Source: an uncultured Lentisphaerales bacterium
GTDB lineage: Bacteria > Verrucomicrobiota > Kiritimatiellia > RFP12 > JAAYLN01
Direction: 5' to 3'
DNA: 64,000 nucleotides
Assembly: GCA_964599645.1 (NCBI GenBank)
Contig: CAZRGQ010000001.1
Location: forward strand, 11,135 to 75,134
The notes below the pieces were generated by a model. It made no database searches, was not told the DNA's origin, and worked only from the letters and a program-made list of their open reading frames with translations. Within the stretch, counting starts at the first letter, position 1; each line of letters starts with the position of its first letter. Positions 15,262-58,000 of this stretch are shown here, one piece after another. Position numbers and translations under genes: made by a program.

Positions 15262-16093
15262 GTTCTCTCTCTCCTCTCTCCAACAAAGAACTCCCGGCCT
15301 GCGCTCCCGCTGTGGCACGCTGACGCAAAACCTCATACATCAGCAAGGCCCCCGCCACGCCGGCATTGAGCGAGCTAACCCGGCCCAACATCGGCAAGGC
15401 CGCCACAAAATCACAATTCTCACGCACCAGGCGCCCCAGCCCGGCTCCTTCGTTCCCCACCACCACGGCCACGCGCCCCTTTAAATCGAGTGCGGTGTAG
15501 TCGCGTGCTCCGTCACCGGCCTCCAGCCCGGTCACCCAGCAACCGGCCTGCTTGAGCTGCTCCAGCGCCCGTACCAGATTGACCACTCGCGCCACCCGCA
15601 GATGCTCGGCCGCACCGGCTGAGGCCCGCACCGCCGCCGCAGTCACGCCGGAGGCCCGATCCTGCGGGATCACCACTCCGACCACCCCGGCAGCATCAGC
15701 CGTCCGCAGCAGCGAACCGACATTCTGCGGATCCTCGATATGGTCCAGCACCAGCACCAGCGCCGCCGGATCGTCTGCGACCAGCTTGAGAATCTCCTTG
15801 ATATCGACGTGCGGGTAGCCCGCCACGCGCAACGCCACCCCCTGGTGGTTGACATCCCGCAACTGGCGGTCGAGCTCGTCCCGCGTCACCGGCCGGTAGT
15901 TGATGCCTTGCTCGTGACAGAGCGCCTGCAGTTCAACCAACTCGTCATCACGCTCAACCTGACGCTCGTTGCTAACCGCCAGCCAGGCTTCATAGACCAG
16001 CCTGCGCCCGGCGCGCAACGTCTCAAGCACCGGACGCCGCCCATAGAGCCAGTCACTGCGCCCCTCCTGCCGGCTGCCGCGTCCCCGCTTCAT
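15254..16093 (-). CDS. rlmB: TrmH/SpoU-family RNA 2'-O-methyltransferase (RlmB-like 23S rRNA Gm2251 methyltransferase)
   Basis: SpoU methylase motifs [33 protein letters not shown] and [18 protein letters not shown] overlap with the yggS stop. Confidence 0.7.
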
Positions 16094-16848
16094 GTGATCA
16101 CCCACTCCTGCTCGCTCTCCCCATCGTCTCCACCTGCAGGACGCCACTTGGGACGCCGTCCGAAGAGGGCGGTGCCGAGCCGGATCAATGTCGCGCCCTC
16201 CTCGATTGCCACCTCAAAATCACTGCTCATCCCCATCGAAAGCTGCGGCAAGGCGATACCGAACTCCCGCTCCCACGCATCACGGTGTTGCCGTACCGCG
16301 GCAAAGATGGGGCGGACGGTTTCGGGATCGGGTGCAATCGGCGCCATGGTCATCAAACCGCCAAGAGTGATCTGCCGCAACGCCAACAACTCTTCCAGCA
16401 ACGGTGGCACCTCCTCCGGCTTCAGTCCGAACTTGCTGGCCTCACCTGCCGCATTGATCTCGAGCAGAATCTCGGGGCGCGCTCCCAACTCAGCGGCAAC
16501 ATGATCGATCTGCTGTGCCAGTTTGAGGGAGTCAACCGAGTGGATCACCGGGAAGAGCGCCAATGCCGGGCGCACCTTATTGCGCTGCAGGTGGCCGATC
16601 AGGTGCCACTCGGGACCGGCCACCGACGCCGGAATCTTGGCCGCAGCCTCCTGAACGCGATTCTCGCCCATGATGCCGATACCGGCCTGCCACGCCTCCT
16701 GCACCGCCTCCGGGCCGAAGTTCTTGGTGACTGCAATCAGCGTCACTTCATCAGCACGACGACCGGCACGCTGACAGGCCGACGCCATACGCCGACGAAT
16801 CTCCGCCAGGCGCGTCTCAAAATCAGATTGGGTACTCTCCATGTTCAT
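16090..16848 (-). CDS. yggS: YggS-family pyridoxal-phosphate homeostasis protein
   Basis: [31 protein letters not shown]...[15 protein letters not shown]...[15 protein letters not shown], the alanine-racemase-N fold of YggS. Confidence 0.8.
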
Positions 16849-16931
16849 AAAGCTGTCCCGCTTGGGAACGCTGCTGATCTTAGCACGCCCCTCCACGCGG
16901 CTCAACACCAAACTGGTCTATTGCTGCAACC

Positions 16932-16942
16932 GGGGGGGGGGG
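16932..16942. repeat. homopolymeric G11 tract in the divergent intergenic region (yggS <-> pseudopilin operon)
   Basis: Eleven consecutive G read directly. Flanked by short inverted repeats (ttgctg...cagcaa). Confidence 0.9.
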
Positions 16943-17024
16943 ACAGCAGCGAGTGGTTAAAAACGTGCTGCGGCGGCGACGGCGCGCCGCCCTCCAGAGA
17001 GCTGCGCACCCCGCAGTTGCATCC

Positions 17025-17042
17025 CCCGGCGCATGCGCCGGG
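17025..17042. promoter_or_regulatory. perfect 18-bp palindrome CCCGGCGCATGCGCCGGG (candidate operator)
   Basis: Reverse complement is identical to itself. Located in the 560-bp regulatory region upstream of the pseudopilin operon. Confidence 0.4.
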
Positions 17043-17120
17043 CGGCAGGCTCTTGCCGCCGCAGTGCGTCAGCCCACACACCCTTGGCTGTTAAGGCCTT
17101 TTACCTTTCAACACAGATCG

Positions 17121-17174
17121 CCGGGCAAAATTGCCCCTGCTGCGCAGGGTCGCTAATCGCTCAATTTTGCCCGG
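17121..17174. promoter_or_regulatory. perfect 13-bp inverted repeat pair CCGGGCAAAATTG ... CAATTTTGCCCGG separated by 28 nt (contains an inner CCCTGC-tgc-GCAGGG hairpin)
   Basis: Read directly. About 300 nt upstream of the pseudopilin start. Could be a regulator binding site or an RNA structure. Confidence 0.4.
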
Positions 17175-17392
17175 CTTCGGATGAATCTGGCATTAGCTCC
17201 CGCCTTGGCTCCCTTGCAGCGCCCCGCCTATTCGTGTCAATTGGTGTTCATTCGTGGTTCTATTTACACGCTCTTCTCATTCACACGGCTCTGCAACCGG
17301 GAGTGCAGCAGCGAGGAGGGTAAAAGGCCCGCAGTTGCAGCCCGCTTTCGCTCTTTTCGCAAATATGATAAACAATGCTGCTTGAAATGGGC

Positions 17393-17419
17393 TTGAAAGG
17401 CCGATTTAAATGGTATAAT
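17393..17419 (+). promoter_or_regulatory. putative sigma70 promoter of the pseudopilin operon: -35 TTGAAA (17393-98, duplicated gcttgaaa x2), extended -10 TGgTATAAT (17411-19)
   Basis: AT-rich island in a GC-rich region, same TGGTATAAT motif as at 9435, about 55 nt upstream of the ATG at 17475, with a good RBS (GGGAGAGAG) before the start. Confidence 0.45.
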
Positions 17420-17474
17420 CTCACTGTTGAACATGGGTATGTTTGCTGCTTTAATCAGGGAGAGAGTTTGAGTG

Positions 17475-17915
17475 ATGACGACGATCCACCACCAGAGAGC
17501 GCTAAAGCGCTGCCACAGACGGCTGTCCCGTTGGCACTCTTGTGCCGGTATGTCGTTGGTTGAAGTCGTCGTCTCTTCAGCTATTCTGGCTTTGGCCATC
17601 CTGACAATCTTTGCCACCTTCAGCTATGCGCGGCGCGCAGTAGTCCTGACTGAGGAGCGTCTGGCCTCGATGCATATTGCGCGTCATGCCATGGAGCGTC
17701 TGCGCAACTATCGCTATGACGATACCGAACTAAGCGTCGGCACCAGAAAGCGCCCGTTGCCGGGCTATCAGGAGAATCGTGGTTACTATAGCGTGACCGA
17801 AGACAAGGCCAACGGCGTGAAGACGATCAGGGTGGTGGTCGAGTGGGTCACCCCCTGGCAGGCGCAACGCGAGGTTGAACTATCGACGATGATGAGCAGG
17901 ACTTTTCACGAATGA
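17475..17915 (+). CDS. prepilin-type N-terminal cleavage/methylation domain protein (type IV minor pilin / T2SS pseudopilin-like)
   Basis: Basic leader, then AG|MSLVEVVVSSAILALAILTIF, the class III signal (G|F/M-x-L-x-E plus hydrophobic helix). Confidence 0.6.
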   Translation: MTTIHHQRALKRCHRRLSRWHSCAGMSLVEVVVSSAILALAILTIFATFSYARRAVVLTEERLASMHIARHAMERLRNYRYDDTELSVGTRKRPLPGYQENRGYYSVTEDKANGVKTIRVVVEWVTPWQAQREVELSTMMSRTFHE

Positions 17916-18424
17916 GAGGCGATTTTTTACAGAAGCGGGGTTATACCCTGACCGAAGTGATGGTAGCCGTGGCGCTCTCGGTGCTGATCGCAGCGGGTGC
18001 CTTCTCCCTCTTTTCGGCGATGTTCTCCTACTGGAAAGGGGTCAACTACCGTGTGCAGGCCGACAGTGATATCAACATGACCATGAGCCGGCTGGTGTAT
18101 GGGATGCCGGAGGCACCGGGGTTGCGTAATGTCGTCGGTGATACGGCCAGCCTTACGACGATGGCCAACAACAGCGGCTGGACGCTTAATTACTCCACGC
18201 CGGCCAGCGACGATACCTTTGAGCAGCGGAGCCTTGTGTGGTCACGAGCCGACAAGACGTTGACCTTTAATCCGGGCGCTGTTGTGGTAGGGCAGGATAT
18301 TGTTGAGGCGACAGCCAGTATCGACCGGAATCTCTTCTTGATCACTCTGCGCCTTGAGCGTAGCGAGGGGCGTTATACCGTGCGCCGTGAACTGGAGACA
18401 GAGATTCTATTCCGCAACTTTTAA
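17912..18424 (+). CDS. prepilin-type N-terminal cleavage/methylation domain protein (pseudopilin)
   Basis: KRG|YTLTEVMVAVALSVLIAAGAF is the canonical prepilin peptidase motif. Start codon overlaps the upstream stop. Confidence 0.7.
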   Translation: MRGDFLQKRGYTLTEVMVAVALSVLIAAGAFSLFSAMFSYWKGVNYRVQADSDINMTMSRLVYGMPEAPGLRNVVGDTASLTTMANNSGWTLNYSTPASDDTFEQRSLVWSRADKTLTFNPGAVVVGQDIVEATASIDRNLFLITLRLERSEGRYTVRRELETEILFRNF

Positions 18425-18431
18425 TGGGGAG

Positions 18432-19739
18432 ATGTTAGCCGTGAAGAGAGACAACAACGGCAGAAATGGCGCCACACTGGTGGTTGTAATCGGCATTATG
18501 CTGATCGGCGCACTCATCACGGCTTCGGTGATGGCGCGAGTTAACAGTCGGGTAAATCTGGCTTTCAGGCAGGTCCATCTCGAGGAGGCTTTTCATGTCG
18601 CCGAAGGCGGCGCTGAGCGCGCTGCCGCCACCATCACGGTGCTCGGCTATGGCAACGTGGGGACACGGACAATAAATGGCTCGTTGGGGCGTGGCCACTA
18701 CACTACCAAGATATCGAGTCAGTCACTCAGCGGCGGTTATCAGGTCGATATCATCTCAACCGGCACGGTCAACGGCGTCAGCCGCGTAGTCAAGATGTCG
18801 GGTGTGCAGCGCGTCAGTTGGGCCCGTTATGCCCTCTGGTACAACAAGCAGTCAGCGAAACTCTACATGATACCGGGCGAGAAATTCCATGGTCTCTTCT
18901 ACTCCAAGCCGCTGCTGCGCTTCAGCAACAAACTGCTCGCTGAAAATGGCCAGGTGCGCTTCTATGACCGTGCCTGGACGGGGCAGTCGACGATCCATAA
19001 AGAGTCGGGTGCTGATCCTGTTTTTGACCGTGGGCTGATTTATAGCTACCACTCCACCACAGAGGAGGATATGTTGCGGGATGTCGATTTCGCCACACTC
19101 AAGGCGCAGGCCAATAGTGATATGATCTTCAAGGGACCCACCACCATTGTGCTTAACGGCAAAAAAATGACGGTTACCAACACCGAAAAAGGGTATACCA
19201 ATAAACAGTTGGATATACCGAGTGACGGGCTGATCTATATTCAAAGCTACAACTCCAACTATACCACTTTTAATGGCGATTTGACGGTCAGCGCTCCCGA
19301 CGGCTTGAACGAGCGGGTTACATTGGTGGCTGAGAACGACATCCTGATTCCAGACCATATAAAATATAAAAATGATCCAAGCAAACCCGCCACAGCCAAC
19401 TCTACCGATGCTCTCGGTCTGATCGCCAAAAAGCATGTCAGAGTTACCAATGACTCGCCGAAAAATCTCTATATCTTTGCCCATATCATCTGCCAGAAGG
19501 GCGGCTTCGGGGTTGATAGCTATCAAACCGTCTCCGACAAGGGAACTTTGACGGTCTATGGCGGCATCGTCAATGATACGCGTAACGGAGTTGGTCAAGT
19601 CAGCACCGATAGCCGTGGCAGAGTAACACGCAACGGGTATGCCAAAGACTATATCTTTGACAAGCGCTTTAACAATACCCCGCCACCCTTCTATCCCGAG
19701 ATACCGGATCAACTGGAGTGGAGCCGTTGGGAGGGCTGA
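18432..19739 (+). CDS. PilX-N-like pilus assembly / minor pilin-associated protein (N-terminal hydrophobic helix, large extracellular domain)
   Basis: Start MLAVKRDNNGRNGATLVVVIGIMLIGALITASVMA resembles the PilX N-terminal domain. The track ORF begins earlier (18354), but ATG 18432 follows the upstream stop (18424). Confidence 0.5.
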   Translation: MLAVKRDNNGRNGATLVVVIGIMLIGALITASVMARVNSRVNLAFRQVHLEEAFHVAEGGAERAAATITVLGYGNVGTRTINGSLGRGHYTTKISSQSLSGGYQVDIISTGTVNGVSRVVKMSGVQRVSWARYALWYNKQSAKLYMIPGEKFHGLFYSKPLLRFSNKLLAENGQVRFYDRAWTGQSTIHKESGADPVFDRGLIYSYHSTTEEDMLRDVDFATLKAQANSDMIFKGPTTIVLNGKKMTVTNTEKGYTNKQLDIPSDGLIYIQSYNSNYTTFNGDLTVSAPDGLNERVTLVAENDILIPDHIKYKNDPSKPATANSTDALGLIAKKHVRVTNDSPKNLYIFAHIICQKGGFGVDSYQTVSDKGTLTVYGGIVNDTRNGVGQVSTDSRGRVTRNGYAKDYIFDKRFNNTPPPFYPEIPDQLEWSRWEG

Positions 19740-19744
19740 AGCGT

Positions 19745-20119
19745 ATGTCGTTTGAGTCACATCTGGTACGTCTCGTGCCTCTCACAGCTCTCCTCTTGCT
19801 GCTGGCCGGCTGCAGCGATGCCGGGCGTAAGCCCGGGGCACGAGCCACCTTTCCCAAACTCGATGAGGCGCCACCACCCGCCATGCCACGGCTGACGGCC
19901 CGGATGGCAGCAGAGACGGCCGCAACCGAAGTTGCGCCTCGCAGGGAGGTGGTCGCCAGCGATAGTTGGCTGACGCGTCAAGAGCAGAACGCGTCGCAGG
20001 TCAAGGCGGCCAGAGAGTATGCCGCCCGCATGGGAACCAACGATCCCTTCGCCATGAGTGAGGTCGAGCTGGCGGAGCTGGCCGAGTTTCTCAAGGATGG
20101 GACCGTCGAGGCTTATTAG
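19745..20119 (+). CDS. small lipoprotein, last gene of the pseudopilin operon
   Basis: MSFESHLVRLVPLTALLLLLAGCSD is a lipoprotein signal with LAGC lipobox. Convergent with, and 3-nt overlapping, the pglE-like gene stop. Confidence 0.55.
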   Translation: MSFESHLVRLVPLTALLLLLAGCSDAGRKPGARATFPKLDEAPPPAMPRLTARMAAETAATEVAPRREVVASDSWLTRQEQNASQVKAAREYAARMGTNDPFAMSEVELAELAEFLKDGTVEAY

Positions 20120-21255
20120 CCTGCCATGCAGTTGTGGCAGATGGCGACGATCCGGGCCAGCTCAGCCTCGCTCAGTCCCGCCCCTGAGGGGAGGCAGAGT
20201 CCCTGCCGGAAGAGCCGCTCTGCGACACTGCCGCCATAACATTTGACGCCGGCAAAGACCGGCTGCAGGTGCATCGGTTGCCAGACGGGGCGCGACTCGA
20301 TCGCCGCTTGCGCCAGCGCCAAACGGAGCTGCTCCGGGGTTACGCGGCTCTTGGTGGCGTCGATCACCATCACGGAGAGCCAGTGGTTGGGCTGGCTGTA
20401 GTCGGCCTGCGGCATCCAGGAGATAGCCTCGTTATCGGCAAAGGCGCTGCGGTAGTAGTCGGCAATCCGCTGCTTGCGGCGTAGAATCTCCGGCAGATGG
20501 GCGAGCTGTCCCACGCCGATGGCAGCCGAGATGTTGCTGAGGCGGTAGTTGAAGCCGAGCTCGCGGTGCTCATACCAGGGGGTGGCCTCACGCGCCTGTT
20601 GCGAACGCCAGGCAGCACGCGCTACCAGTTCGCTGTCGTGTGAAGCGAGCAGGCCGCCGCCGGAGGTGGTGATGATCTTGTTGCCGTTGAAGGAGTAGAC
20701 GGCCGCCAGGCCGGCAGCGCCGGCCATACGCCCTTTGTAGCGTGAACCGACCGCCTCGGCGGCGTCGATAATCAAGGGTACACCGTACTCTTGGCAGAGC
20801 TCTTCCAGCCGGTCGTAATCGCAGCACTCGCCATAGAGGTCGACGGCCACCACCGCCTTGGGCAATTTGTTGCTACGTGCCGCATCGCGCAGCGCCTCGG
20901 CCAGCAGCGCGGGATCGAGGCTCCAGTTGCTGCTGCCGGAGTCGATAAAAACCGGCTCGGCGCCGCGATGCACAGCCGGTGCAATCGAGGCGATAAAGGT
21001 GAGGTCGGAGCAGAAGACACGGTCGCCGCGCCCGAGATTCAACTCGTGAAAGAGGAGGTCGAGCGCCGCCGTGCCGCTGCTGAGGGCGGCCACGTGCGGG
21101 ATGCCGCAGAGCTCGCTGCAGCGCTGCTCAAAGAGGGTGACCATCGGCCCGGTCGGTGCGATGTAGTTGGAGGCCAGAGCGGCGGCGATCTGCCCGGCTT
21201 CATCACCACCCAGCCACGGCGGTGAGAGAAATATCCTGGGGGGGGGAGTCTGCAT
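20116..21255 (-). CDS. DegT/DnrJ/EryC1/StrS-family PLP-dependent sugar aminotransferase (PglE-like, UDP-4-keto-6-deoxy-GlcNAc aminotransferase type)
   Basis: Start MQTPPPRIFLSPPWLGGDE...NYIAPTGPMVTLFEQ closely parallels the Campylobacter PglE N-terminus MRFFLSPPHMGGNE...NYIAPLG...FEQ, and the DegT fold runs throughout. The upstream track ORF extension is GC noise. Confidence 0.75.
   Translation of the reverse strand: MQTPPPRIFLSPPWLGGDEAGQIAAALASNYIAPTGPMVTLFEQRCSELCGIPHVAALSSGTAALDLLFHELNLGRGDRVFCSDLTFIASIAPAVHRGAEPVFIDSGSSNWSLDPALLAEALRDAARSNKLPKAVVAVDLYGECCDYDRLEELCQEYGVPLIIDAAEAVGSRYKGRMAGAAGLAAVYSFNGNKIITTSGGGLLASHDSELVARAAWRSQQAREATPWYEHRELGFNYRLSNISAAIGVGQLAHLPEILRRKQRIADYYRSAFADNEAISWMPQADYSQPNHWLSVMVIDATKSRVTPEQLRLALAQAAIESRPVWQPMHLQPVFAGVKCYGGSVAERLFRQGLCLPSGAGLSEAELARIVAICHNCMAG
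21238..21246. repeat. homopolymeric C9 tract (G9 on the + strand) encoding PPP at codons 4-6 of the pglE-like gene; candidate phase-variation tract
   Basis: Nine consecutive G at 21238-21246, confirmed by the protein reading T-P-P-P-R. Confidence 0.85.
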
Positions 21256-30910: not shown

Positions 30911-30960
30911 TTTGATCCTTTCAACTTACAACCGACAGAAAATTTTACACCAGCATTTTG

Positions 30961-31027
30961 AGGCTCTTGCAAAACCCCCTGTACGCTGTGCCTGACGGCT
31001 TGCGTACAGAGGATTTTGCAGGAGCCT
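30961..31027. promoter_or_regulatory. 26-bp imperfect inverted repeat (23/26 match) with a 15-nt spacer in the divergent promoter region
   Basis: Left arm AGGCTCTTGCAAAACCCCCTGTACGC (30961-30986) versus the reverse complement of GCGTACAGAGGATTTTGCAGGAGCCT (31002-31027). Confidence 0.4.
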
Positions 31028-31393
31028 CGCCATAGCGACCGTTTTCCTGGTGACCGTTTTTCTGTCCCTCACCGTTACTCACTCCTTAACAGCCTCCCTT
31101 TTGCAAATTGCTGTTCGCCGCACATTGACTTGCAGAGGCGGATGCAATACGCTTCTCACTACTGTTCAGAGCATGACCTTAATACCCATCAGCGCATCTC
31201 TGTCCCCGGTTTGCGGCGTAGGGACAGAGAACAACCGACATCGTCATTCTCTGTCCCCCCAGCGGCTTCTCTGTCCCTTGCTATCTTGCGGTTCTCTTAT
31301 CGCGCCTCCTATGCCTCCCCCCCCTGTCACTGAGCGATTACGGTGTTATGCTTTGCGCACTCACTCATCTGTGCTATGGTATTTTCAAGTGCC

Positions 31394-47235: not shown

Positions 47236-50200
47236 ATGAACTCTTCTCTCTCTGCCTTTACGATTACACTGCTGCTGCTCGCCGCCGGAGTCGGGGCCGC
47301 TCCCGGGATCACTGCCAACACCACCACCACGAAGTGGCAAGCGGTAGAGATAGTGGCGGAGGGCCACGAGCAGGTAGTGCAGCGTCCTGAAGAGTGTGAC
47401 AGCCTCCGTTTCAGCTTTATAGTCGGCTCTACCAACCAGAGTCTCTTGCGTATCATACGCAGCGACGGCAGTCAGGTCAGGGTGCCACTGTTCAATCAGG
47501 ACGACAAACGCTCATACTTCGGCAAACAGCCAAAGGTTGACCCTGAGGCAGCGCCCGCGCCTGCGCTCGACGACGCTGCCCTGCTCTTCAGACCGTGGCT
47601 GGCAGCTCATGTGCGTCCGTTGTTGCGTCGCTATACCGAGAAGCAGCAGGAGGAGTTGCAAGCGCGTTGGCAGACTCTGCCGCCGGCCTCGCAACAGACC
47701 TTTACCCTGGAGTTGCGCCAGCAGGAGGGCTTCTTCGAGCGCTATCTCAATGGACACTACATCGGTTACGACAAAGGCAGTTTCGACTCTGTCTGGCTTA
47801 AGCTGCCTGACGGCGGGCGGGTTTTTGACGCCGTAGCCGGCAACGCCTGGCGCGACGACCGGTTTCTGCCGCTGGAGATGGCATGGCTGGCACGTCCGGG
47901 AGCCTTCTCCAATGCGGTGCTCTCGCTCGACAGCGGCCTGCAGCAGATCGACGGGGTGCCGCTACAGGTTGCCCACGGCAGCGCCAGCGCCGACGTCGGT
48001 GTCGTGCGCCAGATGAAGGGCTCGTGGATGTTGGAGGTGGATGAACACCTCTCACGCACACCGTTCGACGGCATGCCGGAGAGCATTATCACCACCGTGC
48101 CGGCAGCCTACTACAGCCGCGCCTGGGTCTTGTGCGGTTTCAATCCTGCCAAAGGAGTCGATCCGATTGTAACGGCCAAGATGACACGCCACGCCCGGTC
48201 GGGGCGCGGTGGCGCCATCAGCAGCACGACGGTTGAGCTGCCACGCCAACGCGGCGACAAACTGCCCGCCAACGTGCGGGAGGTAGGTGAGATCAGACTG
48301 GAGGGCACCAACCTGCCGCTCTATCTGGTGGAGTTTGACCTCAAGCCGGGCGAGATACTCGACCTGCTGGCGATGGAGGAGGACAAGACAGCACGCATGA
48401 TGAGTCAGCCCTATCTCGATATCGACTTCATGGGTAAACCGGGACGGGTGGGAGCCCAGTGGGATGGCAGCAAGAAGCCCGACAACAAGTCGCAGAGCGG
48501 AGTACACCTCTTCGGGATCACACTTGAAAAGATGCCGCTCAAAATGAAGCTGATCCAGTCGGAACCGGGCAACATCTTCCACAACAGTGAAGAGCCGGTA
48601 GTCGGCGTCGAGTTACAGGCCACCGCCCCCGACGCCAACGGTAACCTGCGCTGGACTATTTGTGATGATGGCGGCCGGGAGTTGCAGCAGCAGAGCATCA
48701 AGGTGAGCTTCGGACGGGTTGGTGACCAGCAGAGTCTGAAACTGCCGCTACTCGTTTCCCGGCCCGGTTGGTACGGACTCAGGCTGGAGCTGATAGCCCC
48801 CGATGGCAGAGTCTGGCTACGCCATGAGGCGGCCTTTGCCCAGTTGGGGACCGACACCCGCCAGGCCGGTTATGAGTCGCCCTTCGGCTCTTCATGGTTT
48901 GCCGGCACGCACCACAGTGGCGGCGAGATGGAGATCGCCGGCAAGCTCTTCCTCAAGGCGGGGCTGCGTCAGGGGCAACTGCTGCGGGCCAAGTTTGATG
49001 AGGCCGATTTTGCCCCCTGGAAGGTGACGCAAAATGCCATCCCCTGGCGCATCCGGCCCAAATCGTTCGCCGATAGAGAGGCGGCCAAAGACGAGCTCGA
49101 GCCGCAGGTGCGGGAGCTGCTGCAGCGCTTCCCCCACTGCAACAGCGCCACCATTTTCCATGAGAGCTACAGCAGCAAGCTGCCGGCAGAGCTCTTCGGC
49201 GCGAGCAGCGTTGAAGATGAGGCACAGCTTGCCAAGATTCAAAAGATGGTGGAGCTGGGCAACTTCATGGGCGAATTCTACCGGGAGAGGTTTCCACAGG
49301 TCAGACTGGTGGTGGGCAACACGACCCACTCCTCAACGATTATCTCGGCGCTCTTGCGCCACGGTTTGAAGCCTGAATATATCGATGCCATCGGTATCGA
49401 GGTGGTCGGGCAGAGTTTTCTGCCCGAGCGTCTGACCGGCGGCGGCATTCAGGGGGCCTGGCTGGCGCGCGAGACGGCACGACGTCTGGGACATGAGATA
49501 CCGTTAACGGCCTGTCCCGAGTTTATCTATCGGCTCGACCGGACTCTGGGGCAACGCCGTCAGGCCGAATTCTATGCCCGTGACGTCCTGATCTCGCTCG
49601 CCTACGGCTTCGACCGCGTCACCCCCTCCCTCCTGATGGACGTCGGCAACTCCTACTACAACACCCTCTGGGGTGGCAGCGGCCTCTGCCAGCGCTATCC
49701 GCTGATCTACCCCAAACAGTCTTACGTGGCACTGGCCACCCTGACACGAGTTCTTGACCGCGCCGCGCTGGTGGAGCAGGTGCCGACCGGCTCCCACACC
49801 GTCTATGCCCTGCGCTTCAAACGGGCCGATGGCAATCAGGTGCTGGCGCTCTGGACCCCCGTTGGTGCCGCGACGCTGGAGCTGGAGTTTGAGCAGCGCA
49901 CGGCCATTGAGACTATCGGACTCCTCGGAGCCGGCAACCAGAGCCGCGAGGCACGCCGGCAGCAGGTCGTCGCCACGACTGCGCCCTGCTATGTGGTGAG
50001 CAGTCAGCCGGCTACGGCTGTAAACCTGCTGGAGCGCCGCTACGATCCACCACCGGCCACCTTCAAACCTCTGGAGTCGCTCAGCTCGACCAACACCTGG
50101 CAGTTGAGTGTTGGCGACCCCAAAGTGGAGAGCAAGAGCTACAATCTGCCCTATCGCAAGCCGGGCAGCTTCAAACTGAGCGAAGTAAAAGACGCTGAAC

Positions 50201-50664
50201 GCGGCGCTTGCCTTGAGGTGGAGCTGTTGCGCAGTGAGGCTGCCGAGGCGCTGGTGAGCGAATATACCTTTGTCGAACTGAAGGAGCCGCTGGCCGTACC
50301 GGATCAGCCTAGCGATATCGGACTCTGGCTCAAGGGCGACTCCGGCTGGGGCAAGGTGATCTTCGAAATTGAGGATGCCAAAGGCAAACGGTGGCGTACT
50401 GAAGGGCCCTACCACGATTGGCCGGGCGAGCTCTACATCGGTTTCGACGGCTGGCGCTTTATGCGTTATCCAATCGACGGCTACAGTAGCGAGATCAACC
50501 CCTCACCTACCGGGCGCTGGGGTGGTGCCTACGATGCCAAGCCGGCCATGCCGCTCAAACTGCGGGGTCTCTACCTGGCGCTCAACCGCCAGGCGCTCGG
50601 CCTGACAGAGATGCGCCCGGCTGCCGCCGTGATCCGCATTCAGGATATCGGCTTTGTCTACTGA
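47236..50664 (+). CDS. large secreted hypothetical protein (1142 aa from MNSS...), no recognisable domain
   Basis: RBS AGGAGA 6 nt before ATG 47236. Signal peptide MNSSLSAFTITLLLLAAGVGAAPG. Consistent coding composition to the stop at 50664. Confidence 0.7.
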   Translation: MNSSLSAFTITLLLLAAGVGAAPGITANTTTTKWQAVEIVAEGHEQVVQRPEECDSLRFSFIVGSTNQSLLRIIRSDGSQVRVPLFNQDDKRSYFGKQPKVDPEAAPAPALDDAALLFRPWLAAHVRPLLRRYTEKQQEELQARWQTLPPASQQTFTLELRQQEGFFERYLNGHYIGYDKGSFDSVWLKLPDGGRVFDAVAGNAWRDDRFLPLEMAWLARPGAFSNAVLSLDSGLQQIDGVPLQVAHGSASADVGVVRQMKGSWMLEVDEHLSRTPFDGMPESIITTVPAAYYSRAWVLCGFNPAKGVDPIVTAKMTRHARSGRGGAISSTTVELPRQRGDKLPANVREVGEIRLEGTNLPLYLVEFDLKPGEILDLLAMEEDKTARMMSQPYLDIDFMGKPGRVGAQWDGSKKPDNKSQSGVHLFGITLEKMPLKMKLIQSEPGNIFHNSEEPVVGVELQATAPDANGNLRWTICDDGGRELQQQSIKVSFGRVGDQQSLKLPLLVSRPGWYGLRLELIAPDGRVWLRHEAAFAQLGTDTRQAGYESPFGSSWFAGTHHSGGEMEIAGKLFLKAGLRQGQLLRAKFDEADFAPWKVTQNAIPWRIRPKSFADREAAKDELEPQVRELLQRFPHCNSATIFHESYSSKLPAELFGASSVEDEAQLAKIQKMVELGNFMGEFYRERFPQVRLVVGNTTHSSTIISALLRHGLKPEYIDAIGIEVVGQSFLPERLTGGGIQGAWLARETARRLGHEIPLTACPEFIYRLDRTLGQRRQAEFYARDVLISLAYGFDRVTPSLLMDVGNSYYNTLWGGSGLCQRYPLIYPKQSYVALATLTRVLDRAALVEQVPTGSHTVYALRFKRADGNQVLALWTPVGAATLELEFEQRTAIETIGLLGAGNQSREARRQQVVATTAPCYVVSSQPATAVNLLERRYDPPPATFKPLESLSSTNTWQLSVGDPKVESKSYNLPYRKPGSFKLSEVKDAERGACLEVELLRSEAAEALVSEYTFVELKEPLAVPDQPSDIGLWLKGDSGWGKVIFEIEDAKGKRWRTEGPYHDWPGELYIGFDGWRFMRYPIDGYSSEINPSPTGRWGGAYDAKPAMPLKLRGLYLALNRQALGLTEMRPAAAVIRIQDIGFVY

Positions 50665-50671
50665 GGTTTGA

Positions 50672-50790
50672 TGAGGGTTGTGCTGGCGGAGAAAGTCTCC
50701 GCTCGTGCAAATCCCCCTGGAGGGTTGTGCTTCCGCACAACCACGGCAGTGCAGAAGCACTGCCCTCCATTACCTCAGCTCGTGCAAATA
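50672..50790. mobile_element. REP/BIME-like compound palindromic element adjacent to the RAYT gene
   Basis: Three consecutive perfect hairpins: GCGGAG-aaagt-CTCCGC (50686-50702), GGTTGTGC-ttcc-GCACAACC (50723-50742) and GGCAGTGC-agaa-GCACTGCC (50745-50764). An outer stem TGGAGGG/CCCTCCA (50718-24 / 50763-69) encloses the last two. Direct repeats GAGGGTTGTGCT x2 and GCTCGTGCAAAT x2 flank the unit. Confidence 0.6.
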
Positions 50791-50812
50791 CCATACCCTG
50801 ACTATCCACGAC

Positions 50813-51307
50813 CTAGCAGTCATGCCACGCCAATTTATGCATCTCCCCTTGGTATGGCCAATCTTCTATCTTCTTAACCAGCTTCTTTTCCAGCGGATTT
50901 GCCGAAACATACTCCCACTTCTCGCGATAACTTTCGCCTCTACGCAACTGTCTGTCCCAGATATCAACCTGCCACAGGGGGCGCTCCTCTTGTCGCGGCC
51001 ATCGCCTAGATGCCAGCGATTTCCAATACTTGCACCAGTCACGTACCGGCGTTGGCGGGAAAGTCGCCGGAGCGCAAAAGAGATGTATATGATCTGGCAT
51101 CAGCAGATAGCGACCAACCAGCCAATAGGTCGCCTGCGACCATACCTCTACCAGACAGTCGTGAGCCTGCTTATCGGCAAAGAGAGTTTTGCGCTTATGG
51201 GAACAGAGGGTGAGCCAGATGATAATCGATTGGTTGCCACTCTCAAAAAGAGGCATACGGGCCGGACGTCGGCGTTGGGGTTTGTTCTGTTTGTCAGGTA
51301 AGGGCAT
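50813..51307 (-). mobile_element. IS200/IS605-like Y1 (HUH) transposase of the REP-associated tyrosine transposase (RAYT) type
   Basis: YLLMPDHIHLFCAP (HUH motif) and ...EKWEYVSANPLEKKLV (catalytic Tyr region). 164 aa, alternative start at 51256. Flanked by the palindromic element. Confidence 0.7.
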
Positions 51308-51413
51308 ATACTAAAGATCAGGCATTCCATAACTCCTATTCAGTATAGCTTGAGCGGAATCATGCTGAACTACAAATTTGCACTGCACCCTTTTCAAGAA
51401 ACTCCAACAACCC

Positions 51414-51676
51414 CTAATTCCCCCGATACTCTTGAATAAGACGATGAAACAGCTTGTTAAGCTCGTTTACTACGCCAGCATCCCCGGGCTGCTTTGTAAA
51501 CTCCACAGGGTCGCTCTCCAATTCTCTATCAATGAATGCGTTAAGCAGCGGAACTGTGGGGGCTAGCCCCAAGCTCTACTGCCCGACTCAATTGCAAAGA
51601 GAATACGCACACCGTGCTCTGCCCCAACATTTTTAAGGCGTCGCAGAATCTCAAATCTGGTGCTTTCTGGAATCAT
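51414..51676 (-). pseudogene. remnant of a PF10127-type (RlaP-like) predicted nucleotidyltransferase gene, disrupted by an in-frame stop plus frameshift
   Basis: Minus-strand translation MIPESTRFEILRRLKNVGAEHGVRILFAIESGSRAWG* matches the conserved N-terminus (..ILYAxESGSRAxG) of that family. A second frame continues ...LNAFIDRELESDPVEFTKQPGDAGVVNELNKLFHRLIQEYRGN*. About 85 codons total against ~250 expected. Confidence 0.5.
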
Positions 51677-51688
51677 GGGATCTAGGAG

Positions 51689-52861
51689 CTAATCTGTTGT
51701 CACGTTAACTTGACCATTCATCAGCATCGGAAGCAGCCAGTCGCGGAGTTGTTCGAGCTTGGTTGATTCTTGGCGGTTTTTGACGATTTTATGGAGTATT
51801 GGATTCAGTATTGTGTCCAGTTGATTGATTAGACTTTGAGGAGGCAGAGGTAATCTGCTCATCTCTAAGTGGTCTTTTGTAATATGTCCCATAGTTGTTT
51901 TTCGTAGTTCAGCTACCATTTTGAAATAATCTAAGTAACCGAGTAGGACAAAATAAAAGAATGATTTTGGGTACGACTCAGAGGTGACTTTATAAATGTG
52001 TTGGTTCAAAACGCCAGTTCCGCCTGTCCAAAGTTTTACATCAAGAGTTGCAGACCATGAGAAGAGAACATCTGCGTCATGTATGATTAGATCAGATGGC
52101 ACGTTGGCTGTTACAACATCAGAGCTTTCATCAAGTCCAGAGGAGAATTCGCGAATTTTAATAACTTTATAGACGCCCTTTTCATTGGCTTGTGGGAAGT
52201 ACTTTTGGCAAGCAATACCGTTGGTAAAAGTAGCAATATCTACAAGAGAACCTACCTCCCATCCTTCAGGAATCTTTCGTTTCAGGGTGGAGTTGTAGGT
52301 CATTTTGCCGCCGGAGGTTTTGTAGGGCTTACCGTTGGCATCGAGAAAGTCGAACTGCACAAACCAGTAGTCGTAGAGCGTTTTTGCCATCGCCTCCAGC
52401 TCGGCGTTGATGCGGTTGTTGAGTTCGATTTTGTCATCGAGAGCGGAGAGGACATTAGCAATTTTCTTTTGTTCTAGAACATCTTCGACAACAGGAATGA
52501 CCATTGAATGTAATTCATTTCTATTAACGCCAGGAACTGTGCTTTTATCGGAAGTTTTGATACGCCCAAGGCAATTCATCAGATAATAAATGTACTTTGG
52601 ATCGTTACCTTTAAAGTCTGTTATATACAAAGAAGTGTTATGAGGCCAAAAGTTTTCTTTTATGAAATATGCTGTTCCTAAACTGCCAGTTCGTCCTGTT
52701 ACAACGCCGGGTGCTATTACTTTGTATTCATTATGGCAGCCAGATACACCTGATGAACTAACGACTGGGAATGGACCATGTTTTCTGTCTTTTTCTGTTA
52801 GATCATAGCCACGCTTCCAGTTTATAACATCACCCATTTTCCTTGGAACAACTTTTCTCAT
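51689..52861 (-). CDS. hsdS: type I restriction-modification system specificity subunit
   Basis: Two target-recognition domains separated by conserved repeats; the pattern matches HsdS. Lies downstream of hsdM. Confidence 0.8.
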   Translation of the reverse strand: MRKVVPRKMGDVINWKRGYDLTEKDRKHGPFPVVSSSGVSGCHNEYKVIAPGVVTGRTGSLGTAYFIKENFWPHNTSLYITDFKGNDPKYIYYLMNCLGRIKTSDKSTVPGVNRNELHSMVIPVVEDVLEQKKIANVLSALDDKIELNNRINAELEAMAKTLYDYWFVQFDFLDANGKPYKTSGGKMTYNSTLKRKIPEGWEVGSLVDIATFTNGIACQKYFPQANEKGVYKVIKIREFSSGLDESSDVVTANVPSDLIIHDADVLFSWSATLDVKLWTGGTGVLNQHIYKVTSESYPKSFFYFVLLGYLDYFKMVAELRKTTMGHITKDHLEMSRLPLPPQSLINQLDTILNPILHKIVKNRQESTKLEQLRDWLLPMLMNGQVNVTTD

Positions 52862-53384
52862 ACTTCACCCCCGCCAACTGCTGTTAACCATGCCTTTCCA
52901 TTCTGCGGCAGCCGATATTTTTGTAAACGGCTTTGTTCTCCAGTCAGCACGTGCAACATGCGCGCCACTTGTGCGATTACTTGATTGGTTACTTGGAGGG
53001 TTACTTGGAGGGTGGCCCTTTCAGAGCTATCCCGATTCTGCGACAGATGCTGACTTTCTTTGCCACTTTTTATACTCAACCTCTTGCACTTACGGCCCGG
53101 ACGTAGATTCGCTCTCCATTGGACAATGGCACTCAATGATTGATGTAATGAGGATGGCGACAGGCCTGTTGTCAAAAGGTAGGGCGCGTCTCTCCGAGAC
53201 CGCCGCGGACGGCTACGGAGAGCCGTCCCTACCTGCGCAAAAGCAAGAGCATGTGAAGTGGTAGCGTAAAATCCTCCGCAGTTTTCAGAGCCATTCTCTG
53301 CCACCGACTCTGCCCTTGACTCTGCCCTTGACTCTGCCACCGACTTGTGCAGCGACTTTGTCACCGACTCTGCCCATAGCCTAT
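52862..53384. repeat. ~0.5-kb insert between hsdM and hsdS, flanked by 28-bp imperfect direct repeats (52858-52885 / 53385-53412, 25/28 identical) that duplicate the hsdM 3' end
   Basis: Contains 12-nt tandem arrays: TTACTTGGAGGG and variants x3 at 52977-53012, and GACTCTGCCCTT and variants x3-4 at 53305-53376. The overlapping 176-aa ORF (52858-53388) is low-complexity (AESRAESRAES..., LQVTLQVT...). Confidence 0.6.
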
Positions 53385-55015
53385 TCATACTTCACTCCCG
53401 CTAACTGCCGTTTGATCTCGGCTTCTAACTGGTGGGACTCAGCAAACAGCTTATCAAGATTTCGGGTAAAGCCTTGCATCTTCTGGGCGAACTCTTCGGG
53501 GGTAATGTCAACATACTCGATTTTAACTTCAAAGTATTGACCGGCACTCAGGCTGTAGTTTTTGGCTTTGATGTCATCATAGCTGACGGCGACAGAAAAG
53601 TCATCAAGGCTTTGTTTGCTGTTGAAGGTGTCAATAATCTGCTGTTCTTCGGCACTGGTGAGGACGGTCTTCTGGTTCTTACCGTCTTTGACCTTTTCAC
53701 CAAGGTTGGAGGCATCCACCAGAATCACCTCGCCCTTATTGCCGGCATCAATAAAGAGTACCGAGACATTGGTGCCGGTGGTGGCAAAGATGTTGGAGGG
53801 CATGGAGACGACACCAGCCAGCATCTGGTCGTCAACCAGCTTTTGGCGAATTTTTTTGTCGATACCCGACTGCGCCGTAATAAAGCCGGTGGGGACGACT
53901 ACCGCCGCTTTGCCACCGGGTTTGAGCGAGGCGATGATGTGCTGCAAGAAGAGCTGGTAAATCGCCATCTTGTCTTTGGCTTTATTGGGGACAGCGGGGA
54001 TACCGGCAAAGAAACGCTCTTTATTCTCTTTGCTCTCAAGCGCATCACGAAAATCGCTGAAATCGAGTTTGAAGGGTGGATTGGAGACCACATAGTCGAA
54101 GCGTCTGAGCGCCCGCCTCTCTTTGTGGTAAGGGTACAGGATGGTGTTGCCCTGAATCACATTGGGGATGGAGTGTACCAGATTGTTCAAAATCAGGTTG
54201 AGGCGCAGCAGATTGGTCGATTTTTGCGAAATATCCTGCGTGTAGATGCTGCAACGGTCACTACCGATGGCGTGGGAGATGTTCATCAGTAGCGTGCCGG
54301 AGCCGGCGGAGGGATCGTAGCAGGTGACGTTTCTGATAGTGCCGCGCTTTGACTCAGGTACCAGAATATCAGCCATGATGCGCGCTACGGCGTGCGGCGT
54401 GAAGTATTCGGCGTATTTGCCGCCTGAGTTGCTGTTGTAGTCTTTGATCAGGTACTCAAAGATGACGGCGTAGAAATCGAATTTCTGGGTGAAGATACGC
54501 TCAAAGCTGAACTCCACCAGTTTGTTGATAATGGCGCGGCAGAAATCGTCGCGCCTGGAGGGATCGGCGATATATTCGCTGAGGCGGTCGAAGAGCACCA
54601 CCTTGGCACCGCCATCGGTTTTGACCGCAAAGACGTCGTTGTTGGTGATGGCGATATCGATCAGGGTATCGTCAAAGAGCTTGGCAAAATCGGGCGCGTT
54701 TTGCTGACTGAAGAGGTGGCTGATAAAATGCTGCGGTTTCAGACGTGCGGTGTCGCCACCCATCTGTAGTTGCAGCATTTCCAAATCATCGGCACTCATG
54801 GCACTCAGCGCCTCTTCCCAGTTTTCTGCCCGGGCGATCGCAGGGTCTATTTTTTTGGCCTCAAAGGCGAATTTATCGTTGAGAAACTTATACAAAAAAG
54901 TTTGGGTGATAATTTTAAACTCGTTGCCATCGTTGCCCAGGCCATAGTTGGCGCAAATACTTTTCAGGCTATCGATAAGCGCTTTGGTCTTTTGCTGAAA
55001 CTCAAGTTCTCTCAT
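53381..55015 (-). CDS. hsdM: type I restriction-modification system DNA methyltransferase subunit (N6-adenine)
   Basis: SAM-binding motif and catalytic VVSNPPF (NPPF) motif. 544 aa. Confidence 0.85.
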   Translation of the reverse strand: MRELEFQQKTKALIDSLKSICANYGLGNDGNEFKIITQTFLYKFLNDKFAFEAKKIDPAIARAENWEEALSAMSADDLEMLQLQMGGDTARLKPQHFISHLFSQQNAPDFAKLFDDTLIDIAITNNDVFAVKTDGGAKVVLFDRLSEYIADPSRRDDFCRAIINKLVEFSFERIFTQKFDFYAVIFEYLIKDYNSNSGGKYAEYFTPHAVARIMADILVPESKRGTIRNVTCYDPSAGSGTLLMNISHAIGSDRCSIYTQDISQKSTNLLRLNLILNNLVHSIPNVIQGNTILYPYHKERRALRRFDYVVSNPPFKLDFSDFRDALESKENKERFFAGIPAVPNKAKDKMAIYQLFLQHIIASLKPGGKAAVVVPTGFITAQSGIDKKIRQKLVDDQMLAGVVSMPSNIFATTGTNVSVLFIDAGNKGEVILVDASNLGEKVKDGKNQKTVLTSAEEQQIIDTFNSKQSLDDFSVAVSYDDIKAKNYSLSAGQYFEVKIEYVDITPEEFAQKMQGFTRNLDKLFAESHQLEAEIKRQLAGVKYE

Positions 55016-55045
55016 TCTCTCTTGCCCTCTAAAAAATCGTTGCCA

Positions 55046-58000
55046 CTAACAGGCTTGTCCGCCGGTATTGTACTCTCGCATATACTCCCGCACCACCAAC
55101 TGGTTGATATAGTGTGAGACTTCGGCGTTGAGCGGGATATCTTGCTCACCTTTGAAACGCCGGATGACAAATGGCATCATCTGGAGTTCAAAATAGCTTT
55201 CGTTATCGAGTATCTGGCTGTTGTTAAGTACTTGCTCGTCGGCATCCTGCTTGATGCCCTGCAAGGCCCCGAATATTTTGCGTTCAGAATCACACAGATC
55301 ATTAGCCTGTTGCTGACGCTCCAGTAGACGCTTGTGCAGTCGCGCATATTTGGTGTCGCCACTATATTTTTGCCGCAAGAGGCTGTTCTGTCGATTAAGC
55401 TCCTTGATACGTTCATGAATTTTATTCAGCACCACAATGTTGGCACTCATCTCTGTCTGGGTCACTTCACTGAGTTTTTTCTTCTTAAAGAGTCGTTCAA
55501 GCTCCTCTTTCAGGGTGATAAACTGCGGGTCTTGCTGGTCAAAATTGCTCCCCAGGGCTTCGCGTGTCCTCCGCAGGGTATCTTTCAGCTCATCGGCCAG
55601 CTTCAACTCCTCTTCGCCGATTTTTACAAACTTGAATACCACCTCTTCGAGGGCGCGGTTAAGCAGGTTGGTGGTCTCCTCTCCGCTCTCCAGGCTCTGC
55701 TTGAGGTTGAGCAGGTCAAGATGGTTGCTGACTTCACGATACAAGATGTTGAGTGCAGTAAAATCGAGTTTATCGAGCTCTTCATAGTTGCCTTGCAGAC
55801 GAATGACGTTATACAGACTGCGGGCATCGGCCAGTGCTTTTTTGAGTGCCAGTACACTTTCTCTATTTTGCATCTGGCTAATTTGAATGGAAAACTCTTC
55901 AAGATTTTCGGTGTCAAAGTGGAATAAGAGATCCTTGATGTGCTCAATCTCCTGCTGAATCTCCTCCGGCGACTTAAAGAGTTGCGAGTAGTGCTCCATT
56001 TCATCACCCAGCTCGCTTTGCAACTCGTCAAAATAGGCCTTATTGGTGGCATCAAACTCCTGGCGAATGTCGGCAAAATCGACCACATAACCGTAGCGGA
56101 AGGCTTTGTAGGTGCGGTTGACACGGGTTAAGGCTTGCAGCAGATTTTGTTTGCGAATCACACGCCCCAGGTAAATCTTCTTGAGTCTCGGTGCATCAAA
56201 GCCGGTAAGGAGCATGTTATAGACAAAGAGAAGGTCGATCTTGCCTGCCTTGAAATCTTCGATCCACGCTTTGCGCTCCTCTTTGGTGCCGACATCGTGC
56301 AGGATCAAGGCGGCACTGCGGATCTTTTGCGCCTGTTTTTTTGATGCCATATAACTCATGGAAATCTCTTCCGCCGCTTTTAATAGAAGAGGTTCTTCGC
56401 TTCTTGTTTTACTGAACAAAAGAGATGGCTTGGCAAAGAAGGCATTAAAAATCGCAAACAACTGTTTGGCCTGCTCTGAACTGTCGCAAATCACCATGGC
56501 GCCGATGCTGGCGTCATTAAACGCGCCCCGGCTGGCTTCAAAGTCGCTGACAATGTAGTCGAGCATGGGCGCCACAAAGCTGGGATGGGCATAGATGTGC
56601 TTCCGCTCCACATCACCCATTTTGACCTCAGCCTCTTCTAGCGCCTGCTGCAGTTGCAGCTTGTATTGAGTCGAGATCTCTTCGCGAATCAAGCGCAGGG
56701 TATAGCCATCGGCAATGGAGGCATTGTAGTAGTATTTGTGAATATAGTCGCCGAATAGGTCGCGTGAGCTGTAGTCTGCCGCTTTATGGGGGCCGGAATA
56801 ATAGTCTCTTCCCAGCAACGGGGTGCCGGTTAAGCCGATTTTAATGGCTGTTCGATCGGACTCGTTTAAGTTGGCTAAAAAGCTGCCATGCGGGTTGTAG
56901 CTACGGTGTACTTCATCGAGAAAGTAGACGCGCTGAATGGCGACGTCATAATCTTTGGTGCTCACCACATCCGGGTCGTCTTTAAATTTTTGAATATTGA
57001 CGACGGTAATTTCAGGTGTACCCGAGTGGTTATGAAGCGCCTGTGTTGCTTTGATAGCACGGCTAAACTCTTCACGCGAGTTGACCGTATGTACCACCAG
57101 GTTACGTGCGGTAAACTCCCGCTGCGCCTGTTGCAGCAAATCGAGCCGGTCAACGATGAAGTAGAACTTGGGAATGATATTTCGCTTCTGGAAATAATCG
57201 GTCAAAAAATGGACGTTGTAGTAAGCCAATGCGGTTTTGCCACTCCCCTGAGTGTGCCAGATAATCCCTTTTTTGATGCCGTCATTCAGCTTCTGCTCAA
57301 TAGCTTTCGTGGCAAAGAGCTGCGGGTAGCGCATAATGTGCTTTTGGATGCCGCTATTTTCGTTGACGTAAGTAAGAGCAAAACGCAGGATAAAAGCGAG
57401 GCGTTCGCGGCTAAGTAAAGAGGTGCAGAGACGGTTGGTCGGACGCTCAGGCTGTTTGTTGGTCAGGAACTCGGGGTTGTTCTTGATGACTTCCAGATTG
57501 TTGTCTTTTAAAACCTCACGTTCTGCTTCATCTGATAACGGCTTAAGCAATGCCGTAAGATTGAAGACCTCCTCTTCACGGAAGTAGTTAAAGCCGGGGT
57601 TATGATAAGAGCTGCTGGCATAAAAAGCCCCCTGTAGGGGCTCAGGGTCGCTATTGTCGTACTCCATGTTATTGGAGAAGATCATAAACTGGGTGATATT
57701 GACAAAGCGTCGGAATTTAGGGTTCTGAAAGCGCCTGGTGATGCGCTCACGCTCGGCAATAATACCATCACGGTTATTCGGTTTTTTAACTTCGATAAAG
57801 ATCAATGGCATACCGTTGATCAGCAGGGTGATATCGGGCCGAAACTCCTCACCGCCATGCTGATAGGTCAATTCGGTGACGACATGGAAGCTGTTGTGAT
57901 TAAAATTGTCAAAATCAAGCAACTTGATATTGGAGCGTTCTGTTAGCTGCTCAAAGAAGGCGCGGCCTAAATCTTCGTTATCGAGCTTCAGCTTCACCTC

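Follow-up and report, generated by a model that had tools for sequence, protein, structure and literature searches.

What occupies the long non-coding span between yggS and a divergently oriented, pseudopilin-like operon in an uncultured Lentisphaerales bacterium? We analyzed a 64,000-nt stretch of contig CAZRGQ010000001.1 (the window, numbered from its first base), in which the median gene gap is about 45 nt under a crude gene model and this spacer is one of the few longest gaps. An initial annotation had described a structured regulatory region of 560 bp at 16912-17474, in which a run of 11 guanines (G11) might phase-vary promoter spacing and hence pilin expression, and which might alternatively be a small RNA or a miniature mobile element. 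Gene calls on public contigs put the yggS start codon, an ATG, at 16848 and thereby give a non-coding span of 626 bp (16849-17474); the gap is unusually long, as claimed, but its true extent is larger. Every sequence element listed in that annotation is present, with small corrections only. Guanine-plus-cytosine (GC) content was said to stay high across the region; it is indeed 0.685 in 16900-17099 but drops to 0.475 in 17300-17499 (0.47 over 17262-17474). We tentatively favor, at a probability of roughly 40%, a reading in which the spacer consists of two ordinary gene-proximal promoters and, at a synteny breakpoint, a lineage-specific non-coding mosaic resembling either repetitive extragenic palindromic sequences and bacterial interspersed mosaic elements (REP/BIME) or miniature inverted-repeat transposable elements (MITEs).

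Results

Fixed Contig Ends in the Spacer

Same-species contigs from the Logan collection, assembled at a single k-mer length of 31, were fetched by way of the proteins flanking the spacer and mapped to the window. The underlying data are DNA metagenomes that several studies obtained from anaerobic digesters: runs SRR8925713 and SRR8925810, both with identical contigs, are listed in PMC7842101 and PMC13644194, respectively, and the digester source LSQX00000000 is cited in PMC5985405. Contigs arriving from the yggS side end at 16989 (four contigs), 16992 (three), 16965, 16942 and 16941, and those leading into the pilin operon start at 17232 (eight distinct contigs) or 17259 (one); at their outer ends these contigs show no such fixed positions. 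Unitigs of a k = 31 graph break off either 29 nt into sequence that also occurs elsewhere or at the point of divergence between two alleles. Read as repeat boundaries, the fixed ends would therefore delimit a shared stretch from 16960/16963 to 17261, which, counted from 16963, extends from the first base of a large stem-loop (SL1) to one base past a 31-nt triple-decamer motif. Only LSQX01240899.1, a contig from a conventional assembly and the sole return of a metagenome scan, spans the gap; it is identical to the window there, with one single-nucleotide polymorphism at 17278.

The central cassette so defined comprises about 302 bp and is non-coding, six-frame translation showing no gene. An open frame of 120 codons at 16961-17320 has no homologue among 5.8 billion proteins, and the two partial open reading frames that a gene caller might predict on a contig made of the cassette alone are not on record. 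Two other identities for this DNA were rejected, namely a decayed GxxExxY gene on the minus strand (no such frame in the six-frame translation) and a replication origin (no window-scale switch in GC skew, and no DnaA box with up to one mismatch in the spacer).

Two controls elsewhere in the window support reading the fixed ends as repeats. Four contigs start at 53205, which is 29 nt inside the end of a GC-rich hairpin at 53177-53233 (z-score -4.0). Another Kiritimatiellia metagenome-assembled genome (MAG) holds a 34-nt match to this hairpin at 91% identity (L003, 9340-9372), in which both sides of the inner stem have changed as a pair (GTCTC/GAGAC against GTCAC/GTGAC). The hairpin, which has no match in Rfam, looks like a member of a REP-like family common to the class. 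The second control addresses GC dropout: at the patch GGCCGCCGCCGG in degT, contigs from both directions tend to end, but scattered over 20653-20772. The 53-kb hairpin lies inside a block of low GC content (about 50000-58000, 0.48-0.50 vs. 0.60 for the window), probably an acquired island, whose genes include type I restriction-modification functions (hsdR and an N6 methyltransferase).

These controls also bear on a rival explanation, according to which the spacer is unique single-copy DNA without dispersed-repeat character, the contig ends are technical products of Illumina dropout or of sequence-specific errors at inverted repeats of extreme GC content, and the repeats and hairpins are functionless relics of a past rearrangement. 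Such an account fits the failure to find a second copy of the cassette in the searched sequences, the position of the spacer at a synteny breakpoint, the location of the left end in GGC-rich DNA (88% GC) that forms the base of a -70 kcal/mol hairpin, and the capacity of the likewise GC-rich degT patch to draw contig ends. It accounts poorly for their precision, as the ends in degT spread over ~120 nt whereas eight of the nine pilin-side contigs start exactly at 17232, in an unstructured stretch of 55% GC (z-score +2) located 57 nt from the nearest hairpin and exactly 29 nt from the end of a motif dispersed in other genomes. We consider this account unlikely.

Structural variation of a simple kind was also considered. 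A clean deletion would account for contig ends at 16989 and 17232 but conflicts with those at 16992; it was rejected as the sole event, though a deletion allele may be one of several alleles. An inversion switch was rejected as well. Short inverted repeats precede the pilin operon here as in fimS (one perfect pair of 11 nt at 17095-105/17319-29, and one of 14 nt, 86% complementary, at 16923-36/17328-41); unlike fimS, the locus shows branch points without inverted repeats, its promoter lies outside the putative invertible segment, and eight independent contigs run through the candidate right arms, crossing 17319-17341 unbranched.

Stem-Loops SL1 and SL2

The yggS-proximal part of the cassette is taken up by SL1, a structure that the initial annotation did not recognize as a whole. 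Its outer arms (16963-92 and 17040-69) enclose inner hairpins, among them the perfect 18-bp palindrome CCCGGCGCATGCGCCGGG at 17025-17042, which had been annotated correctly. SL1 folds with an energy of -70.3 kcal/mol and with z-scores of -4.4 (plus strand) and -2.4 (minus strand). On the minus strand, CACG separates a 10-bp GC stem from UUUUU (16963-16959), and the loop is far above canonical size. The second stem-loop, SL2, corresponds to an inverted-repeat pair that had been given as 13 bp with a separation of 28 nt; the separation and the perfect pairing hold, and the arms measure 14 bp (17120-17133/17162-17175). No longer perfect hairpin stem exists in the 64 kb, and 10 block shuffles reached at most 12; the z-scores of SL2 are -4.8 and -5.3 on the plus and minus strands, respectively. 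SL1 and SL2 alike are much more stable than shuffled sequence. Downstream, 17176-17290 is less structured than shuffles (z-score +2). Covariance models offered no family for the small RNA envisaged in the initial annotation: Rfam gave no match at E up to 10 in 16000-18500 (radC came closest with 16.3 bits, its gathering score being 40), nor did the full 64 kb contain a hit that reached the gathering threshold, and ARAGORN found no tRNA or tmRNA.

The chief biological alternative to the reading that we favor is that the cassette encodes a structured minus-strand non-coding RNA of ~300 nt, running from about 17261 via SL2 to SL1 and its UUUUU (16959), whether as a stand-alone small RNA or as a long attenuating leader of yggS-rlmB-capA-purD. 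The z-scores of SL1 and SL2 (-4.4 to -5.3) and the U5 run, present after SL1 on the minus strand only, are consistent with this proposal, as are the implied repeat ends at 16960 and 17261, which would be the transcript ends, and the triple-decamer motif, which in every other genome is sense-oriented to its neighboring genes, an orientation equivalent to the minus strand here. We nevertheless judge such an RNA unlikely, given that, besides the negative Rfam results, no promoter is recognizable upstream of 17261 on the minus strand, no homologue was found in the fetched loci, SL1 folds better on the plus strand, and relatives express yggS from 18-100 nt of upstream DNA without any such leader.

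A Dispersed Triple-Decamer Motif

The pilin-proximal end of the cassette is formed by the motif ATTCGTGTCA ATTGGTGTTC ATTCGTGGTTC, which also escaped the initial annotation. No copy would be expected in the window by chance, and the copy found deviates from the consensus at 2 of 31 positions. The Kiritimatiellae MAG FR_21 (L001) matches it over 32 nt at 94% identity and contains three copies within 400 bp (69-99, 332-363 and 376-406), and three IMG/VR contigs hold another five (L065 at 2499, 3582 and 7760; L066 at 9654; L067 at 6755). In these sequences the motif (ATTCGTGTCTATTCGTGTTCATTCGTGGTTC) always lies at gene boundaries, with the neighboring genes read on the GAACCACGAATG strand, which is the minus strand in the window; when translated, it forms either a gene start (MNTNKHE, MDTNEHE; MNTN(K/E)HE) or a gene end (...GTTNEHE*). 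One of the motif-linked genes of L001 encodes a truncated GxxExxY protein (TIGR04256), which had suggested the decayed gene rejected above. In L065 the motif adjoins other tandem repeats of 7-10 nt (CACAGATT, CCATTTT). The motif has no Rfam match, and in the papers searched its DNA and peptide strings returned only unrelated primer sequences or nothing.

A bolder proposal is that the ~300-nt cassette represents a new element of the Kiritimatiellae that is low in copy number, either a structured non-coding RNA or a mobile element, and that its ATTCGTGTCTATTCGTGTTCATTCGTGGTTC end is a class-wide gene-boundary signal in these bacteria and their phages. The motif could then be an array for a protein that recognizes three direct 10-bp repeats, or a signal for RNA processing or translation. 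We hold this proposal to be decidedly unlikely.

Units A and B and the G11 Tract

Colinear alignment within the spacer (score 47.5 vs. 22.5 +/- 4.2 for shuffles, maximum 43) reveals two diverged copies of a ~55-70-nt unit, namely unit A, in the order CTGCAACCGGG..CAGCAGCGAG..GGTTAAAA..CCCGCAGTTGCATCCC, and a compact unit B. Two changes set A apart from B: its G run is expanded (G11-ACA where B reads GGGAGTG), and it carries an insert of 45 nt (16964-17008), which is the 5' arm of SL1. The 12-nt direct repeats of the initial annotation, CCCGCAGTTGCA, are present at 17010-21 (previously 17009-20) and 17328-39, extend to 16 nt with one mismatch, and form part of this longer duplication, which had been overlooked. 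Their earlier interpretation as direct repeats flanking a mobile element stands as far as the repeats themselves are concerned; they represent a diverged duplication of 70-125 nt, however, and not a target-site duplication. Neither unit forms a hairpin of greater stability than shuffled sequence (unit B z-score +0.5). Integron attC sites are imperfect palindromes with R'' (RYYYAAC) and R' (GTTRRRY) cores, arrayed near intI. Within the units, CTGCAAC and GTTGCAG each match 5 of 7 positions of the attC core consensus; unit B has a two-base bulge, the hairpins do not exceed shuffles, and neither unit contains a cassette open reading frame. An attC identity was considered and is held to be unlikely.

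The G11 tract in unit A is the longest homopolymer in the 64 kb, followed by a G9 at 21238, and has the short flanking inverted repeats (TGCTG/CAGCA) ascribed to it. Its length exceeds the roughly 8 G/C from which a homopolymer can be expected to slip. It appears to be an expansion of the GGG found at the matching place in unit B. Of the same-species contigs that run through it, nine have G11; a single one, L061 (SRR13001970), has G10, its only difference from the window, which makes one of 11 same-species assemblies. Contigs L056 and L060 stop at the tract. The control C9/G9 tract at 21238-46 is invariant in 12 contigs. The G10/G11 difference is a weak hint of slippage, not proof of it. The control run itself (C9 at 21238-21246) makes up codons 3-6 (T-P-P-P) of a gene for a DegT/PglE-like aminotransferase (20116-21255, minus strand), part of a glycosylation cluster of the PglC/PglD/DegT type that follows closely on the pilin operon. 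Inside a coding sequence, a C9 of this kind would be a classical site of frameshift phase variation, and its length is 9 in 12 of 12 same-species contigs.

Known phase-variable promoter tracts, such as the TA repeats of hifA/hifB in Haemophilus influenzae and the poly-G/C tracts of porA and opc in Neisseria meningitidis, lie between or overlap the -35 and -10 hexamers. G11 resembles them as a long G tract in a divergent intergenic region beside pilin-like genes, with the hint of G10/G11 variation, and differs from them in position. It ends 469 nt upstream of the extended -10 of the pilin operon (17411-19). On the other side, its bases lie 27-37 nt 5' of the candidate yggS -35 (TTGAGC, minus strand), which corresponds to about -62 to -72 relative to the predicted start of yggS transcription, and a consensus scan showed no promoter-like site across it. 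As the tract is outside both promoter spacers, the distance between -35 and -10 in either promoter, as read, cannot change with tract length, and the proposed phase variation of promoter spacing is not supported.

A broader model built on the initial annotation, a contingency locus in which G11 phase-varies the divergent promoters, hence the pilin, and the palindromes serve as operators, draws on the singular length of the tract, on the lone G10 assembly and the two contigs ending at the tract against an invariant C9/G9 control, and on the setting of a surface pilin-like operon beside a glycosylation cluster, which is typical of such loci. Apart from the distances given above, it has to contend with the possibility that the one G10 is an error of poly-G sequencing or assembly, with the lack of an adjacent regulator gene, and with the arrangement of TGCAAC(C/T)G(C/G)GG in two convergent pairs, whose inconsistent spacings of 43 and 91 bp are unlike a dimeric operator. 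We regard it as very unlikely.

Promoters

Both flanks of the spacer carry sequences that may serve as sigma-70-type promoters. On the pilin side, the AT-rich TTGAAA/TGgTATAAT promoter of the initial annotation is borne out, in that both elements are present (17393-98 and 17411-19), the pair lying 56-61 nt 5' of the ATG at 17475 and preceded by an AT-rich stretch (17355-17392); a Shine-Dalgarno sequence, GGGAGAGAG, follows at 17458-66. For yggS, TTGAGC (16905-16900) and TGcTAAGAT (16885-16877), separated by 17 nt, constitute the sole plausible candidate promoter between the G tract and the gene, with a predicted transcription start near 16870. The consensus scan misses the pilin promoter because it accepts spacers of 16-18 nt and this one measures 15 nt, and the yggS promoter falls under its threshold because 8 of 12 consensus positions match. 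A sigma-54 promoter of the pilin operon was rejected on reading 17340-17474, which contains no GG-N10-GC with the correct spacing.

Flanking Genes and Synteny

Coordinates of the features discussed are collected in Table 1. The gene yggS is the first of a conserved yggS-rlmB-capA block, and its identical 252-aa product is called on 21 public contigs. The best-named relatives of YggS come from Kiritimatiellae MAGs at 57-70% identity, and those at 64-70% retain the downstream genes. At 68-70% identity the yggS-rlmB pair is retained (in the closest, at 70%, capA also), the DNA upstream of yggS measures 18-100 nt and is bounded by other, co-directional genes, and no similarity to the spacer is found. 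In a scan of genome contigs the best YggS identity was 57%, and the one upstream region inspected, in L001, is without the pilin operon.

Genes 1 and 2 of the operon carry the N_methyl (prepilin N-terminal methylation) motif and show weak matches to GspI and PilV. Gene 1 has no homologue detected among the 5.8 billion proteins, and the GC content of the operon is 0.556 vs. 0.63-0.66 in its flanks; the operon appears to be a fast-evolving or acquired surface-structure module. Its 432-aa and 124-aa products match no Pfam or NCBIfam family. Together, the short upstream regions of the relatives, the homologue-less first pilin gene and the low GC content of the operon mark the spacer as a junction between conserved and lineage-specific DNA.

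The window holds one further structured intergenic region, at 30911-31342, where TCTCTGTCCC/GGGACAGAGA occurs five times, in both orientations, and where 30960-31028 holds a 27-nt inverted repeat that is 89% complementary.

Table 1. Features of the yggS-pilin spacer and its flanks (window coordinates)
Feature	Position	Strand	Basis
yggS (pyridoxal phosphate-binding YggS family)	16090..16848	-	Pfam Ala_racemase_N, E 2.8e-22
Candidate yggS promoter: TTGAGC, 17-nt spacer, TGcTAAGAT	16877..16905	-	by eye
Unit A, diverged copy of a ~55-70-nt unit	16901..17025		local alignment with unit B; repeat families D1, D2, D4
G11 homopolymer	16932..16942		flanked by TGCTG/CAGCA
Central cassette: SL1, linker, SL2, unstructured tail, triple-decamer motif	16960..17261		stretch missing from k = 31 contigs
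SL1, 107-nt branched stem-loop	16963..17069		inverted repeat I1; fold
SL2, 14-bp perfect stem around a 6-bp mini-hairpin (CCCTGC tgc GCAGGG)	17120..17175		fold
Triple-decamer dispersed motif, 31 nt	17230..17260	-	copies elsewhere
Unit B, compact copy; includes CTGCAACCGGG (17291) and CCCGCAGTTGCAGCCC (17328)	17275..17343		alignment with unit A
Putative pilin-operon promoter: TTGAAA, 15-nt spacer, extended -10 TGgTATAAT	17393..17419	+	read from sequence
Pseudopilin-like operon, four genes (146, 170, 432 and 124 aa)	17475..20119	+	gene calls on public contigs agree

Discussion

In the arrangement that we favor, two gene-proximal promoters of the sigma-70 type would be separated by ~440 bp of lineage-specific non-coding DNA, made up of the two diverged direct copies A and B and of a ~300-bp cassette of SL1, SL2 and the 31-nt motif. 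The cassette would be a mosaic of short dispersed repeats, with ends shared with other sites in the genome or in the community, and ends recurring elsewhere would explain why contigs from k = 31 assemblies of many digesters stop at exactly the same bases. Functionally, it may act as passive spacer DNA, with SL1 and the T5 run that follows it on the yggS-sense strand possibly serving as a hairpin terminator or insulator that halts minus-strand transcription entering from the pilin side ahead of the yggS promoter. G11 would be a slippage-prone by-product of the duplicated unit A, which may vary between G10 and G11 without acting as a promoter switch, and which would at most shift the phasing of far-upstream DNA relative to the yggS promoter.

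Two known classes of intergenic DNA offer the closest comparisons. In Escherichia coli and Pseudomonas, REP sequences, REPINs and BIMEs break short-k assemblies and can be barriers to transcription or mRNA decay. Like them, the cassette consists of intergenic, GC-rich imperfect palindromes that fold into stable hairpins in a mosaic with short motifs, and the second hairpin in the window, at 53 kb, has a relative in another Kiritimatiellia genome. Unlike classical REPs, which occur every few kb, SL1 and SL2 have no further copy in ~70 kb or in the fetched loci; moreover, SL1 is branched and 107 nt long, and the triple-decamer end is a direct, AT-richer repeat and no palindrome. Promoter-side MITEs such as the Correia elements of Neisseria measure ~100-400 bp and sometimes carry terminators or promoters. 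The cassette is similarly small, non-coding, hairpin-forming and absent from the orthologous sites of relatives; unlike a MITE, it ends without terminal inverted repeats or a target-site duplication, and the only inverted pair that brackets it (16923-36/17328-41) lies off the assembly-graph boundaries. The mobile element or small RNA entertained in the initial annotation is partly supported, by a central unit that behaves as discrete and as repeated or polymorphic in assembly graphs, by its dispersed end motif and by its strong folding; against it stand the failure to find a second copy in the searched sequences and the lack of terminal inverted repeats, a target-site duplication and an Rfam match.

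Several observations weigh against a mosaic of dispersed repeats between two ordinary promoters. The window, the 5.7 kb past its right edge and the fetched loci yielded no second SL1, SL2 or cassette, and the cassette has no match in phage or plasmid collections. Scans of viral contigs for SL2 and for the pattern of motif plus unit B returned nothing, and blastn-short of the spacer against the window, which bears on the suggestion of a repeated element in the initial annotation, gave chance 11-13-mers only. Multi-copy status is an inference from the behavior of the assembly graph, in which the fixed k = 31 ends imply 30-mers shared with other places. An allelic segment at 16990/93-17231, present, absent or replaced among strains, would give the same contig ends, and Illumina dropout is conceivable at the left end, which falls in the 88% GC stretch. 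Terminal inverted repeats at the cassette ends score at best 12 (shuffle mean 12.1), and no short exact target-site duplication is present at 16959/60 and 17261/62. A terminator role for SL1 is weak in that four nucleotides separate the main stem from the U run, and a terminator scan calls none there. Finally, both promoters are by-eye readings, and the consensus scan calls neither.

On balance, the locus most likely adds one more case to a well-known type of intergenic DNA built from repeats and hairpins. If this is correct, the spacer would be of little mechanistic importance, and its interest would lie in showing how short repeats and hairpins accumulate at rearrangement junctions in an uncultured bacterium of the Planctomycetes-Verrucomicrobia-Chlamydiae (PVC) group, and how metagenome assemblies made with short k are systematically broken up by such repeats. 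Repeated or variable DNA can be spotted cheaply by contig ends that stay fixed across Logan assemblies at k = 31. Phase variation would matter for pilin biology only if real switching occurs. A cassette representing a new element, as in the bolder proposal, would insulate or regulate the lineage-specific pilin island. Beyond this locus, the triple-decamer motif and the 53-kb hairpin, both common to distant Kiritimatiellae genomes and the motif also to viral contigs, are possible new repeat families.

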